A DNA stretch of 64,000 bases from an uncultured Clostridia bacterium (GCA_947630235.1 CANRGN010000004.1:3458-67457); one strand, 5' to 3'. Positions 13,829-42,362 are shown, counted from the stretch's first letter. The notes: a model not told the origin generated them from the sequence alone. A program made the numbers and translations.

Positions 13829-14494
13829 ATGAAAAAGGTATTTTTAATAATATTTACGATATTGGTAGTTATTACACTTGTTTTTACTTTAAGAGAATGT
13901 AAAAACATTTTTGCATTTTATACTACGAATGATAAAATTACTAATTTTTTTAATGTAGGCCAAATAAGTGCAGAAGTAGAAGAACCAAATTATCAAGATA
14001 ATAAAGTTGTAAGACCAGGAGACGAAGTTGTAAAAGATCCAATATTATCTAATAATGGAAAAGTAGATAGTTATATAAGAGCTCAGGTATATGTCCCTAT
14101 ATCAGAAGAGATTAAATATGTAGATGAAAATGAAGAAATAGATGAGATAGAAAAAGAAATTGAGTTAGTATCTTATGATTTAAATGAAGGATGGGTTAAA
14201 GTAGAAGATAATAATTTTACTGGTTCATATGAAGATGGAAATGGCAATAAATATCATGTATATACCTATAAATATGTTAAGGATAATTTAGAAAAAATAA
14301 TAAAACCTGGAGAAAAAATAGAAAAGCCAGTATTTGATAAAGTGAAAATAATTAATTATTTAGATATGGATAAAGCAATAAATATAAAATTACATGTAAC
14401 AGCAATTGCAGTACAAGCAGAAGGAGGAACAGCAGAAGAAATGTGGTCATACTATATTAAGCAAAATGGAACTGGAATTGAAGGAGTGAAATAG
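13829..14494 (+). CDS. TasA/camelysin-like secreted protein with a SipW-cognate-type signal peptide
   Basis: RBS aaaggaggg. The N-terminus has an h-region plus FAFYTTND. The motif VVRPGDEVVKDPILSNNGKVDSYIRAQVYVP is shared by all six paralogues. Confidence 0.75.
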   Translation: MKKVFLIIFTILVVITLVFTLRECKNIFAFYTTNDKITNFFNVGQISAEVEEPNYQDNKVVRPGDEVVKDPILSNNGKVDSYIRAQVYVPISEEIKYVDENEEIDEIEKEIELVSYDLNEGWVKVEDNNFTGSYEDGNGNKYHVYTYKYVKDNLEKIIKPGEKIEKPVFDKVKIINYLDMDKAINIKLHVTAIAVQAEGGTAEEMWSYYIKQNGTGIEGVK

Positions 14495-15016
14495 ATGAAG
14501 AATAAAAATAAAATAAAAATTGTAATTATTGTAGCTATTATAATAATATTTATGTCTTTGGGAGTATATGGATATTTTATATATAAGAAGTCCGTAACGA
14601 ATAATATGGTTTTAGGGTATAACGATATAGAAGTTAATGAAAAGTATCAGCCACCATTGAAAATAGAAAAAGGTACAAGTTTTCAAAAAGAGCCTACTGT
14701 TACAAATAATGGAAATGTGGATTGTTATGTAAGGGTAAAATCTTTGGTATCAGATAGTAGAGTGGAGGATGGTTTAAGTATAGATTATGATAAAGAGAAT
14801 TATAAATATAATGAAGAAGATGGATACTATTATTATCAAAAAGTATTAAAACCAGGAGATACAACGGAGCCGTTATTTACAACAGTAGAGATATTAGAAA
14901 AAGCAAGTGATGATGTATTAAATGGATTTGAAATATATGTATATGCAGAATCAGTCCAAACAGTAAAAGATATGAATATGGAGCAAGTATGGAATTATTT
15001 TAATAAAACAGAGTAA
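14495..15016 (+). CDS. TasA/camelysin-like secreted protein (paralogue 2)
   Basis: The ATG abuts the previous stop (tagATG). Signal-anchor plus GYFIY, then EPTVTNNGNVDCYVRVK. Confidence 0.7.
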   Translation: MKNKNKIKIVIIVAIIIIFMSLGVYGYFIYKKSVTNNMVLGYNDIEVNEKYQPPLKIEKGTSFQKEPTVTNNGNVDCYVRVKSLVSDSRVEDGLSIDYDKENYKYNEEDGYYYYQKVLKPGDTTEPLFTTVEILEKASDDVLNGFEIYVYAESVQTVKDMNMEQVWNYFNKTE

Positions 15017-40615: not shown

Positions 40616-42362
40616 TATAACTGGTACAACAGATGGAATAAGTAGCGGTACTACTAATACTATTACAATATCAGGAGGAACAATAACAGCAACTAACAAT
40701 TCTGGAGTATTTGTATCTAATGGAAGTGCAACAATATCTGCCGGTAATATAACAGGAGGAAAAGATGGAATAATGACTCAATCAACTGGTAAATTATCAA
40801 TATCAGGAGGAACAATTACAGGAAAAAGTCAAGCTGGAGTATATAATTATTCTACAGGAACTATAGTAATAACAGGAGGAAAAATTATTGCAAAAACAGA
40901 TGGTGTATTAAATTATACAACTGGAAGTTTAACGATAGGAAAGAATGATACAACTGTTAGTCAAACTAATCCTGATATACAAGGAGAAAGATATGGTATT
41001 AGTGGATCTTGTTACTTTTATGATGGTTTAATAAAGGGAATAACTTCAGCATTTAGTTCTACATCAGGTATAAAAGGTAAACCAAGTGGATATAAAGTAA
41101 CTAATGGAACAGTGAAAGTAAATAATGTAACATATCAAAAATCTTATTTAACTAAAACAACATCATCACCAGGAATAGAAGGCCCAAGTATGGAAATTTA
41201 TAATATACAATCATTTAATATAAATAAAAATAAATTAACAGAAATGGGTGAAAAGGATGTTATTACAGATTTAGGAGAAAATACAAAAGTTCAAGAAGAA
41301 AATATAACATCAGAGTCAGAAGAAAAATCAGAAGCAGAAGAAAATATAACATCAGAGCCAGAAGAAAAATCAGAAGCAGAAGAAAATATAACACCAGAAT
41401 CAGAAGAAAAACCAAAAGCAGAAGAAAAAGTAACACCAGAGCTAGAAGAAAAACCAAAAGCAGAAGAAAAAGTAACACCAGAGCTAGAAGAAAAACCAAA
41501 AGCAGAAGAAAAAGTAACACCAGAGCTAGAAGAAAAACTAAAAACTGAAGAAAAAGTAACACCAGAATCAGAAGAAAAACCAAAAGCAGAAGAAGAAAGT
41601 GAAACACAAGAATCTTCAGAAACAATAGAAACTCCTAATGTAGAAGAAAGTAACAACGAAATAAATGATAATTTAGAAAAGGCAGATCAAATTTTAGAAA
41701 ATGATATACCTAGTATTGAAGATGTTGATTTAGGCGTAATTCAAAATGAAGCGCAAATAGGAGATAATACTTTTGAAACTTTGAAGCAAGCAATTAATGA
41801 AGCACAAATTGGTGATGAAATTGTAGTATTAAAAGATATAAATTTAACAGAAGAGATTATGATAGATGAAACAAAAGAGATTATTCTAAATTTAAATGAA
41901 AAAACTTTAACAAGTGTTGTGGAAAATACTATAAATAATAAAGGAAAATTAATAATAGAATCAACAGGTATTATAACAAATGATTTAGAAAATAGTAAAG
42001 TAATATTTAATGATGGATTATTAGATATTGAAAGTGCTAATATTAAGGTGGTATCAAATAACAGTATAGGAGTGTATAATCACGGAGAATTAAATACTGC
42101 AAATAGTAAAATTGAAGTTTTGGGTAATAACTCTATTGGAATTTATAATACAACTAAAGGTACAATAATTGCACAAAATAATCAAGATAATTATATGGAT
42201 TTTATCAATAAAATTACAAGTAAATATAATATTGATTTAAGTATAGATAATATAATAGCAGATTTTAAGAATAAAAAATCAAGTATAGAAATTATAGGTG
42301 AGAAAAGTATAGAAATTTATTATGAAGGAGATGATGCATCTACAAAAGAAAATTTAAAATAA
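40566..42362 (+). CDS. Giant secreted repeat protein, part 2 (beta-helix-like GT(L/I)TISGG repeats, EEK-rich tandem linker, second beta-helix-like region); continuation in the +1 frame
   Basis: The repeat pattern continues across the junction (..TNGTVEGKIAGI|YVQNGNLTVSGGSITG..). This frame is open from 40557. Confidence 0.85.
   Translation: MLELYVQNGNLTVSGGSITGTTDGISSGTTNTITISGGTITATNNSGVFVSNGSATISAGNITGGKDGIMTQSTGKLSISGGTITGKSQAGVYNYSTGTIVITGGKIIAKTDGVLNYTTGSLTIGKNDTTVSQTNPDIQGERYGISGSCYFYDGLIKGITSAFSSTSGIKGKPSGYKVTNGTVKVNNVTYQKSYLTKTTSSPGIEGPSMEIYNIQSFNINKNKLTEMGEKDVITDLGENTKVQEENITSESEEKSEAEENITSEPEEKSEAEENITPESEEKPKAEEKVTPELEEKPKAEEKVTPELEEKPKAEEKVTPELEEKLKTEEKVTPESEEKPKAEEESETQESSETIETPNVEESNNEINDNLEKADQILENDIPSIEDVDLGVIQNEAQIGDNTFETLKQAINEAQIGDEIVVLKDINLTEEIMIDETKEIILNLNEKTLTSVVENTINNKGKLIIESTGIITNDLENSKVIFNDGLLDIESANIKVVSNNSIGVYNHGELNTANSKIEVLGNNSIGIYNTTKGTIIAQNNQDNYMDFINKITSKYNIDLSIDNIIADFKNKKSSIEIIGEKSIEIYYEGDDASTKENLK
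41295..41630 (+). repeat. Eight tandem 42-nt (14-aa) coding repeats (EE(N/K)(I/V)T(S/P)E.EEK.(E/K)(A/T))
   Basis: The unit gaagaaaaagtaacaccagagctagaagaaaaaccaaaagca is repeated head to tail. Three central copies are identical. Confidence 0.9.

Follow-up and report, generated by a model that had tools for sequence, protein, structure and literature searches.

The closest described systems to the genes treated here are the tapA-sipW-tasA operon of Bacillus subtilis (PDB 8AUR; PMC10151520), the sipW-tasA-calY genes of Bacillus cereus with CapP (PMC13082335), and the sipW-bsaA-bsaB-bsaC operon of Clostridium perfringens (PMC7395162, PMC11580942). Donor-strand exchange is established for TasA of B. 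subtilis (PMC9674648), where the N-terminal strand of one subunit is donated to the next, and TapA gives its N-terminus to TasA without being a fiber subunit itself (PMC10151520). In B. cereus, heterofilaments of TasA and CalY are experimentally supported (PMC13082335). Oligomerization of BsaA needs Asn35 on the donated strand together with Lys74 and Glu56 in the receiving subunit, and Kivimaki et al. proposed donor-strand exchange followed by an N35–K74 isopeptide lock, with E56 as the catalytic residue (PMC11580942). Genes of the BsaA/TasA type often lie near genes for LPxTG proteins, SpaA/fibronectin-domain proteins, signal peptidases, and sortases (PMC11580942, section 14), and several paralogs per operon have been taken to suggest heteropolymers (PMC11580942). 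Here, we analyze a stretch of 64,000 nucleotides from an uncultured Clostridia bacterium (GCA_947630235.1, CANRGN010000004.1:3458-67457; hereafter, the window, with positions counted from its first letter) that encodes six TasA-like paralogs (P1 to P6), one SipW-type signal peptidase, and two giant proteins (giant A and giant B) on either side of rpoB and rpoC.

An initial annotation had read these genes as one two-part locus split by rpoBC. All the open reading frames (ORFs) it named are present on the plus strand with the starts it gave; its single locus, however, gave way once the two parts were found to occur separately in relatives. We instead favor, at a probability of roughly 0.6, a reading with two distinct cassettes, one on each side of rpoBC, that encode SipW-dependent surface fibers of the TasA/BsaA type and do not form one unit; the figure covers this explanation as a whole, that is, two cassettes, SipW processing, strand-exchange assembly, and P5 as the base. 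Module A (13829–24767) comprises P1 (13829–14494; 221 amino acids [aa]), the short P2 (14495–15016; 173 aa), giant A (15054–23132; 2692 aa, from translation and Pfam matches), P3 (23275–23919; 214 codons with an in-frame stop, predicted as two ORFs, 96 and 110 aa long), and P4 (24078–24767; 229 aa). Next come rpoB (25232–28951; 1239 aa) and rpoC (29072–32617; 1181 aa), both confirmed, and then module B (33482–42362) with P5 (33482–34642; 386 aa), P6 (34652–35302; 216 aa), a SipW-type (archaeal/ER-type) signal peptidase I (35335–35829; 164 aa), and giant B (35942–42362; frameshifted, ~2150 aa if repaired, as judged from DNA, translations, and Pfam). All of these genes lie on the plus strand, and P1–P4 and P6 are subunits of the TasA/BsaA family. 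Module B is a complete cassette; module A is a reduced copy of the cassette seen in relatives, and both its sipW and its anchor gene are lost.

Set beside the described systems, this locus resembles the bsa operon of C. perfringens in several respects: a SipW-type peptidase adjoins several TasA-like paralogs; TIGR04090, the BsaA family, is the best NCBIfam family for P2, P3, P4, and P6, with every score sub-threshold; a class B sortase gene neighbors the operon, as it does in one related module B locus (L009); and of the Asn/Glu/Lys isopeptide triad proposed alongside donor-strand exchange, P1–P4 keep an invariant Asn. A sorting signal is missing from both BsaA and BsaB, and BsaA polymerizes without sortase, whereas here one paralog (P5) carries a fused anchor domain and sorting signal; the bsa operon also has no giant adhesin, BsaC being a vWA protein of ~70 kDa. 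With the B. subtilis system the window shares predicted SipW-dependent export and an AFND/AYFTD-type signal junction, and the TasA N-terminal strand given to the next subunit, as well as TapA as an accessory donor, serve as models—the latter for large proteins in which a donor-like N-terminus is not accompanied by a TasA core. In contrast, B. subtilis TasA has Ala where P1–P4 have an invariant Asn, its sequence similarity to the present proteins is undetectable beyond the first ~80 residues, and its operon encodes a single kind of subunit and neither a sortase anchor nor giant proteins. In B. cereus, likewise, more than one TasA-family paralog co-assembles, but TasA/CalY is described as sortase-independent, with two paralogs rather than the four plus two seen here, and without giant adhesins.

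The initial annotation had proposed a fiber more elaborate than the tapA-sipW-tasA paradigm. This is true, but it had been anticipated, both in PMC11580942 and by the TasA/CalY heterofilaments found in B. cereus (PMC13082335). We therefore see in the window an instance of a recognized, experimentally untouched variant of a known system, and not a new principle. What is new is the dissection into two cassette types, an anchored two-domain P5 family with a standalone relative (p273, a protein of 273 aa), the distribution of the Asn, Glu, and Lys residues (N/E/K) among the paralog classes, and large proteins with the features of strand donors only.

The division into two cassettes comes from context look-ups and a scan of GTDB genomes, which together yielded related loci from metagenomes and metagenome-assembled genomes (MAGs). 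Two human-gut metagenome loci (L004 and L005) contain module A as a run of sipW, a P1-like gene (218 aa), a P2-like gene (179 aa), a giant SpaA/LRR protein gene (2474 aa), an intact P3-like gene (214 aa), p273, and a P4-like gene (223 aa), and the same run from the P2-like gene onward is found in L006 and on MAG contig L010. In none of these four loci does module A adjoin rpoBC. Its own sipW lies upstream in L004 and L005, and the module A ortholog in L011 also has sipW, whereas in the window both sipW and p273 are missing from module A, and a search for remnants of sipW or of an anchor gene came up empty in four intervals: 5′ of P1, P3 to P4, P4 to rpoB, and rpoC to P5. Giant A orthologs take the same position in L004, L006, L010, L012, and L013, and the position of the giant gene inside the cassettes is kept across orthologs that are 53–60% identical.

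Module B, too, occurs by itself: as P5-like, P6-like, and SipW genes between mutL and rpsO in L007, and as a run of sortase, P5-like, P6-like, SipW, and a 775-aa Flg_new protein in L009. A related MAG whose rpoB is 76% identical (L012) has giant A, P4, rpoB, rpoC, and gdpP, and its rpoC abuts gdpP with no module B. The ~11 kb of the window at 33400–44300 consist of module B, a divergent Xre-type HTH gene, and a gene for a small Big_2 protein (43488–44231); this block is absent between rpoC and gdpP in L012 (compared with L012 10454–11685) and, from this comparison, looks like an insertion relative to L012; no integrase was found. The HTH gene (HTH_3 in Pfam; 42745–43224, minus strand), situated within the block inserted between rpoC and gdpP, is by its position a possible regulator of module B. 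Given that the modules occur separately in relatives, their being split by rpoBC amounts to a juxtaposition and not to operon design. Separate promoter-like sites also precede rpoB and P5: a perfect TTGACA with a 16-nucleotide spacer and TG-TATAAT between P4 and rpoB (24869–24896; 12/12 consensus positions), and TTTACA with a 17-nucleotide spacer and TATAAT, again with TG, 5′ of module B (33090–33118, plus strand; 11/12). In our consensus scan, matches of the latter grade were no commoner than expected in this AT-rich DNA, and the site 5′ of module B is suggestive at most.

All six paralogs have an N-terminal h-region, an AYFTD-like junction, and a PG...N.G...Y.R.K core in common (alignment A1; pairwise identity 24–29%). 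The motifs quoted in the initial annotation were all recovered—AFYTTND in P1, GYFIY in P2, AYFTD in P3, AYLTD in P4, GIYSLQS in P5, and AFFTD in P6—as was the core in each of the six. A hidden Markov model (HMM) built from the six matched just those six among the 237 six-frame ORFs of the window, and orthologs from another locus cross-match the paralogs in tblastn (E 1e-8 to 1e-25); their resemblance is therefore homology and not chance. Orthologs in L004 are 52–56% (P1) and 59–60% (P2) identical, and the homologs named by NCBI are called 'TasA family protein'. The homologs found all belong to MAGs of uncultured organisms from the gut or rumen, labeled 'Clostridia bacterium', 'Clostridium sp. 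UMGS1594', Oscillospiraceae, or Eggerthellaceae.

Curated family models gave a graded picture. P1 exceeds the cutoff of Pfam PF12389 (Peptidase_M73/camelysin; 28.4 against 22.5 bits), while P2, P3, P4, and P6 stay below it (13.9–19.1 bits), as they do for TIGR04090 (BsaA family SipW-dependent biofilm matrix protein; 16.9–48.1 bits, the upper value being that of P2, against a cutoff of 60); P5 has no match. For the SipW-type signal model TIGR04088 (cutoff 19), P4 (18.8 bits), P3 (18.1), and P6 (15.4) fall short, and P1, P2, and P5 were not detected by it, their motifs being visible by eye. The expectation that Pfam and TIGRFAM models would recognize the family and its signal was hence borne out in full for P1 with PF12389 and elsewhere at sub-threshold level or not at all. 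Relatives score higher: the genes at the P6 position in L007 and L009 pass TIGR04088 (29.0 and 25.9 bits), and PF12389 is found in them and in some P4 orthologs (56% identity). P5 is tied to the other paralogs by the A1 HMM, which matches its residues 1–191 with an E-value of 3e-59. By HMM and tblastn, then, the earlier claim of six TasA-like proteins holds, and we take the six, as a group, to be members of the TasA/BsaA superfamily. A literal reading as a camelysin metalloprotease was dropped, as PMC11580942 calls the peptidase assignment a likely misidentification.

Structural evidence is supportive at most. Profiles of P4 homologs and related proteins aligned with B. subtilis TasA in hhalign at 94.7–94.8% probability over residues 1–78 (P4 itself, 94.7%; the TasA sequence used is identical to PDB 8AUR chain A), and profiles A1 and A5 searched against PDB sequences retrieved no TasA chain. 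The AlphaFold2 (AF2) model of P4 (pLDDT 87.9, pTM 0.80) is mainly beta with a C-terminal helix, and its best PDB match is the TasA fiber 8AUR_A (probability 0.98), a weak match with an E-value of 1.3e-3 and a TM-score of 0.28, ahead of Fim subunits, 7PNB, and 7UEG (E > 0.05). As a separate observation, the P4 family carries a conserved acidic loop of the form D-x-D/N-x-N/D-G-I-P-D-Y-A-E in the segment that separates the first strand from the PG/PN motif (24225–24270, residues ~52–68; DTNNNNIPDYAEN in P4; alignment A4). This loop resembles a calcium-binding loop, and a calcium-responsive family of TasA-like matrix proteins has been described (preprint 10.64898/2026.01.04.697558).

In agreement with the initial annotation, the window encodes a single SipW-type peptidase, at 35335, and neither tblastn nor region searches revealed a second copy or a remnant in it. 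The protein scores 81.2 bits against TIGR02228 (cutoff 51.85) and 72.3 bits against NF046067, the Bacillus SipW equivalog (cutoff 190), and is thus not an ortholog of the Bacillus enzyme. By eye, it shows the boxes SGSMEP (Ser43), THR (His83), and GDAN (Asp98), and we take Ser43, His83, and Asp98 to be its catalytic residues. sipW sits in the same cassette as TasA-like genes in module B, but not in module A of the window; if still active, module A must consequently use the SipW of module B.

P5 combines a GIYS-type signal with a TasA-like domain (residues ~40–165), a second beta domain (~183–330), and a C-terminus in which FSPKTGDY is followed by a hydrophobic transmembrane helix and a Lys-rich basic tail (ending in FSPKTGDYEFELSIVIFFASSIGLIIVLFLNKKEKENMNRNKK); the designation of the protein at 33482 as the sortase-anchored member is borne out by this SPKTGD, helix, and tail. 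P1–P4 and P6 carry no sorting signal. The AF2 model of P5 shows two beta domains plus the transmembrane helix, and a fold search with the two-domain model returned generic Ig/FnIII folds (RbmA, CupB6, integrins) at TM-scores below 0.25. The signal (S/N)P(Q/K)TGD is kept in 32 P5 homologs (alignment A2), and the P5 family comprises 501 representatives of 50%-identity clusters at E ≤ 1e-30, nearly all full-length among the best 150 of the 501. Purified SrtB of Clostridioides difficile cleaves SPKTG and SPQTG peptides (PMC4155245), and the sortase encoded directly 5′ of the P5-like gene in L009 exceeds the class B model TIGR03064 (160.8 against 153.75 bits). For P5 itself, the sortase may be encoded elsewhere in the genome, and P5 would be the wall-anchored base of module B.

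The standalone relative p273 of L004 combines an ordinary signal peptide with a homolog of the P5 C-terminal domain (tblastn E 1.5e-7) and a VKTGD signal with transmembrane helix and basic tail. Proteins of this type (L004 10674–11495, L014 760–1536, L023 10800–11558, L026 11440–12075, L029 14174–14836) recur in TasA-like cassettes; they are 210–275 aa long and consist of an ordinary signal peptide, one beta domain with an (M/L)PGD motif like that of the P5 C-terminal domain, and a sortase signal, with no Pfam family and weak matches to NF053819 (EF0750 sortase-dependent surface protein). The idea that the P5 C-terminal domain and p273 are TasA-like acceptors reduced to the core is not established, hhalign having given only a 31-column local match at the PGD motif (61.5% probability).

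The conservation pattern of the paralogs points to a possible covalent lock in one subunit class. Three residues are invariant in all 52 of 52 P4 homologs: an Asn that precedes a conserved Gly by five residues, a Glu 13 positions after this Asn, and the Lys within an xxK(D/E/I)P motif; together with one Gln, these three residues are the sole invariant columns in 12 diverse homologs from different MAG lineages. The set is present in 30 of 31 P1-like and 52 of 58 P3-like proteins, and the candidate residues in the window are N39, E52, and K69 in P1, N36, E49, and K65 in P2, and N35, E48, and K77 in P4. In P1–P4, the Asn lies in a V/A-x-N-x-F/L/M context that resembles V33-N35-F37 of BsaA. P5 and P6 do not have the set: the P5 family has Leu at the Lys position, and P6 of the window has K, S, and Q at the three positions, while its counterparts in L007 and L009 keep N/E/K. 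Our homology searches returned no BsaA-named protein. We regard the residue set of P1–P4 as compatible with a BsaA-type isopeptide lock—a well-motivated hypothesis derived from sequence conservation.

The two giant proteins differ in architecture, and, as initially annotated, neither ends in a sorting signal. Giant A begins with an ordinary AXA-type signal peptide (VIA|YDD), as do its orthologs, and continues through an acidic low-complexity linker, a conserved N-terminal region of ~900 aa that matches no family, SpaA/SdrD_B/Cna-B-type stalk domains (five of them with a SpaA fold), and BspA-type LRR_5/LRR_8 repeats. Neither the paralog HMM nor the N-terminal HMMs found a TasA-like domain or a SipW-type or donor-like N-terminus in it; its conserved place in module A argues for a functional link. 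Giant B consists of Listeria-Bacteroides (Flg_new) repeats, long Ser/Thr-rich repeats, a beta-helix-like region, and an EEKPKAEE repeat, with no anchor. Its signal peptide ends in GIYSFFADE, which by eye is like P5 (GIYS) and P6 (AFFTDADE). As a SipW substrate, giant B was a candidate set aside, the signal-plus-donor HMMs being negative and the likeness one seen by eye.

Elsewhere, the signal-plus-donor HMM does match large proteins that have no TasA core (in L009, L015, and L029), and the Flg_new protein after sipW in L009 has the canonical start segment GYFTDLTEPAVNQF and no TasA core. In L009 the Flg_new gene lies 3′ of sipW, and in L015, L016, L017, and L022 genes for Flg_new proteins occur close to sipW and to TasA-like genes. 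Since TapA of B. subtilis sets a precedent and these proteins have donor-like N-termini, an adhesin that caps the fiber purely as a donor is a reasonable model for the class; for giant B of the window itself, such a cap is weakly supported. We also observed complete SipW-type signals and TasA-like domains fused N-terminally to Flg_new/LRR proteins (L015 6649–9480, L016 583–3522, L017 576–2663, and L019 7128–9287). These are 700–980 aa long, those in L015, L016, and L017 share a conserved ...WWLRSP...GFGFCIR C-terminus, and all four look like natural 'pilin-adhesin' fusions. The layout proposed in the initial annotation—an anchor, shaft paralogs, and adhesin tips—fits module B, L007, and L009; a tip role for giant A found no support, and the N-terminus of giant B is HMM-negative.

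Of the six paralogs and two giants counted initially, all are present, though P3 is a pseudogene and giant B is frameshifted. P3 is a single 214-codon frame interrupted by an in-frame TAA at 23563–23565 (GAA to TAA). L001 and L002, two further metagenome assemblies with 100% identity in this region, have the same stop, for which reason an assembly error can be excluded, and an intact 214-aa ortholog (P0001) differs at 4 of 214 positions (~98% identity) and has Glu at the stop codon. As P3 and p273 are wholly absent in L011 and L012, P3 seems to be a fresh pseudogene, which the window has caught in the process of loss. Giant B is split into two overlapping ORFs (35942–40615 and 40566–42362) with a frameshift near 40575–40615, and an exact-product look-up for an independent copy found no match. 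A split also affects spoIIE, whose +1 frame change separates ORFs 5006–5614 and 5619–7439 (Pfam SpoIIE_N positions 20–192 in the former, 211–601 in the latter) and marks either a sporulation pseudogene or an assembly error. With spoIIE frameshifted in the same window, assembly error is possible for both genes.

How the parts might work together can be outlined by analogy. Family membership, gene order, the recurrence of both cassettes, residue conservation, and the P5 sorting signal are read from sequence; SipW dependence, polymerization, the order of subunits, the lock, and any attachment of the giants are inferred. From its family, SipW would remove the AYFTD-type signal peptides, whereupon the exposed N-terminal strand would complete the beta-sandwich of a neighbor by donor-strand exchange, as in TasA and BsaA. 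In P1–P4, the Asn on the donated strand and the Glu and Lys on the acceptor could then form a BsaA-like Asn–Lys isopeptide lock, whereas P5 and P6 have no lock residues and module B fibers would be held non-covalently. In module B, a class B-type sortase encoded elsewhere would fix P5 to peptidoglycan via its SPKTG signal; P5 would accept P6, and P6, as the repeating subunit, would polymerize. Giant B would be a co-expressed surface protein that may cap the distal subunit via a SipW-processed N-terminus, as TapA does for TasA—an idea that rests on TapA and on the L009 counterpart, which has the required sequence. Module A may give a second fiber from P1, P2, and P4, possibly isopeptide-locked, with no dedicated anchor.

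Such an organelle would share features with two further groups of surface filaments. As in SpaA-type sortase pili, there would be a tip adhesin, a shaft, and a wall-anchored base attached by sortase, and giant A has SpaA/Cna-B-type stalk domains. Subunits of SpaA-type pili, however, are joined by sortase transpeptidation via a pilin-motif Lys, whereas P5 is the sole paralog here with a sorting signal, and polymerization would therefore have to proceed by strand insertion. A SpaA-type shaft pilin carries an LPXTG signal of its own and is encoded beside a pilin-specific class C sortase; giant A and P1–P4 and P6 have no sorting signal, and the window has no sortase gene. Donor-strand complementation between Ig-like subunits is shared with chaperone-usher pili (Fim/Pap), archaeal bundling pili (7UEG), and Sulfolobus threads (7PNB), the last of which also have inter-subunit isopeptide bonds, yet their export and assembly machinery is different, and these filaments are weak structural neighbors of P4 (E > 0.05). 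A more ambitious reading, which we hold tentatively and think rather doubtful, is that the cassettes build a third kind of Gram-positive pilus, with a base fixed by class B sortase (P5 or a p273-type protein), a donor-strand-exchange shaft with the Asn–Lys lock in the P1–P4 type, and giant adhesins joined via a SipW-processed donor strand or a fused TasA-like domain.

Several observations weigh against the two-cassette explanation as a whole. Every TIGR04090 and TIGR04088 score in the window is under the NCBI curated cutoff, P5 matches neither Pfam nor any other library, and TasA is absent from the top 50 structural matches of the P5 model and is a weak match for that of P4 (TM-score 0.28, E 1.3e-3). 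The Asn–Glu spacing is 13 here against 21 in BsaA, the likeness to BsaA being drawn from published residue positions and not from a direct alignment, so that their equivalence is unproven. TasA, moreover, forms no isopeptide but has Glu50 and Lys68 at the aligned positions, with Ala37 for the Asn; as Glu and Lys are shared, the Asn alone discriminates, and this keeps the lock hypothetical. Neither Pfam nor tblastn with the L009 sortase identified a sortase among the ORFs of the 64-kb window. Giant A has no feature that links it physically to a fiber, and the N-terminus of giant B, a gene frameshifted in this assembly, went undetected by both N-terminal HMMs (P4 and P5 families), even at relaxed thresholds. 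With P3 dead and module A without sipW and anchor, part of the system may be non-functional. Finally, the window, L011, and L012, which are related, all have module A directly 5′ of rpoB, a placement that is thus not purely accidental but conserved in the lineage.

In the earlier model, the six paralogs, the one SipW, and both giants make a single heteropolymeric fiber with P5 as the common anchor and the giants as tips. There is just one sipW in the window; module A, without the sipW and p273 of its relatives, would depend on the SipW of module B and perhaps on P5, whose C-terminal domain is homologous to p273. We nevertheless consider this model quite unlikely: the modules are found separately in other genomes, L012 has module A and rpoBC with no module B beside rpoC, and rpoB has its own perfect promoter-like site. 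Moreover, the lock residues are present in P1–P4 and absent in P5 and P6, which argues for two chemically distinct polymers, and giant A offers no TasA element of donor or acceptor type. Alternatively, the locus could be in decay, one or both cassettes being non-functional in this lineage and their genes remnants in the course of being lost. P3 has its nonsense codon in three assemblies and is wholly absent, with p273, from L011 and L012; giant B and spoIIE are both frameshifted; module A has no sipW and no anchor; and P6 of the window has lost the N/E/K that its L007 and L009 counterparts keep. Against this, P1, P2, P4, P5, P6, SipW, and giant A are all intact ORFs, the 2692 codons of giant A would not stay open at 26% GC without selection, and the frameshifts may stem from faulty assembly of a MAG with low coverage (related metagenome contigs have ~3× coverage); decay of this kind appears unlikely to us.

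One may also doubt that anything is anchored at all. The TasA-like proteins could be a released biofilm matrix, with the giants unrelated neighboring adhesins and no anchored pilus-like organelle, in line with the matrix fibers formed by characterized family members, the recovery of BsaA polymers mainly in the extracellular fraction with no need for SrtB (PMC7395162), and the report that BsaA is not linked to peptidoglycan (PMC11580942). This view, however, leaves aside a P5 family (501 cluster representatives) that fuses a TasA-like domain to a canonical sorting signal, the recurrence of standalone anchored p273-type proteins and sortases in these cassettes, the conserved position of the giant genes (orthologs 53–60% identical), and relatives that fuse a TasA-like domain straight to Flg_new/LRR proteins. 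We rate it as very unlikely and return to two separate cassettes, with P5 as the predicted base of module B, as the preferred reading.

Beyond the cassettes, the window has a G+C content of ~26% and carries the firmicute housekeeping genes spoIIE, rpoB, rpoC, gdpP, rplI, dnaB, tilS, and ftsH. In Firmicutes, rplJ-rplL usually lie 5′ of rpoB-rpoC and rpsL-rpsG-fusA 3′ of them; here, rpoB-rpoC have neither group at its usual place and are flanked by a fiber cassette and by gdpP-rplI-dnaB, and their placement between a fiber cassette and the gdpP side is also seen in L011 and L012. Both cassettes are preceded by unusually long non-coding leaders (13040–13828, 789 bp; 32618–33481, 864 bp), the former with two terminator-like hairpins (13188–13213 and 13632–13653). 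For riboswitches, c-di-GMP or other, Rfam gave no match at the gathering score in either leader and chance-level matches at E ≤ 1. Upstream of the fiber region are a 1515-aa ORF with no Pfam match (233–4780, 5′ of spoIIE) and, after spoIIE, genes for a WG_beta_rep protein (7589–9151) and a 420-aa ORF with no match (9192–10454), which may be further surface proteins. Toward the other end, ORFs with protein-kinase domains (51598–53253 and 53272–54111), an AAA_11/AAA_12 helicase (54237–57362), and a wHTH-PRTase-associated protein (57319–58560) form a run at 51598–58560 that could be a defense-type island.

TasA, CalY, and BsaA have so far been studied as biofilm-matrix proteins, either released or held only loosely by the cell. 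The cassettes described here, like many similar ones from uncultured gut Clostridia and from MAGs labeled Eggerthellaceae, bring this subunit fold together with a sortase anchor and adhesins 2000–2700 residues long. If our reading is true, donor-strand polymerization—until now regarded as typical of matrix fibers and of the chaperone-usher pili of Gram-negative bacteria—would also build wall-anchored adhesive organelles in Gram-positive gut commensals, with isopeptide bonds reinforcing one subunit class. Should the cassettes indeed amount to a third kind of pilus, its tip would be a pure strand donor and its base a pure acceptor, a polarity the reverse of that in chaperone-usher pili. The paralogs with and without Asn/Glu/Lys, the fused and the separate anchor domains, and the adhesins with a donor-like N-terminus only make up natural material for comparison.

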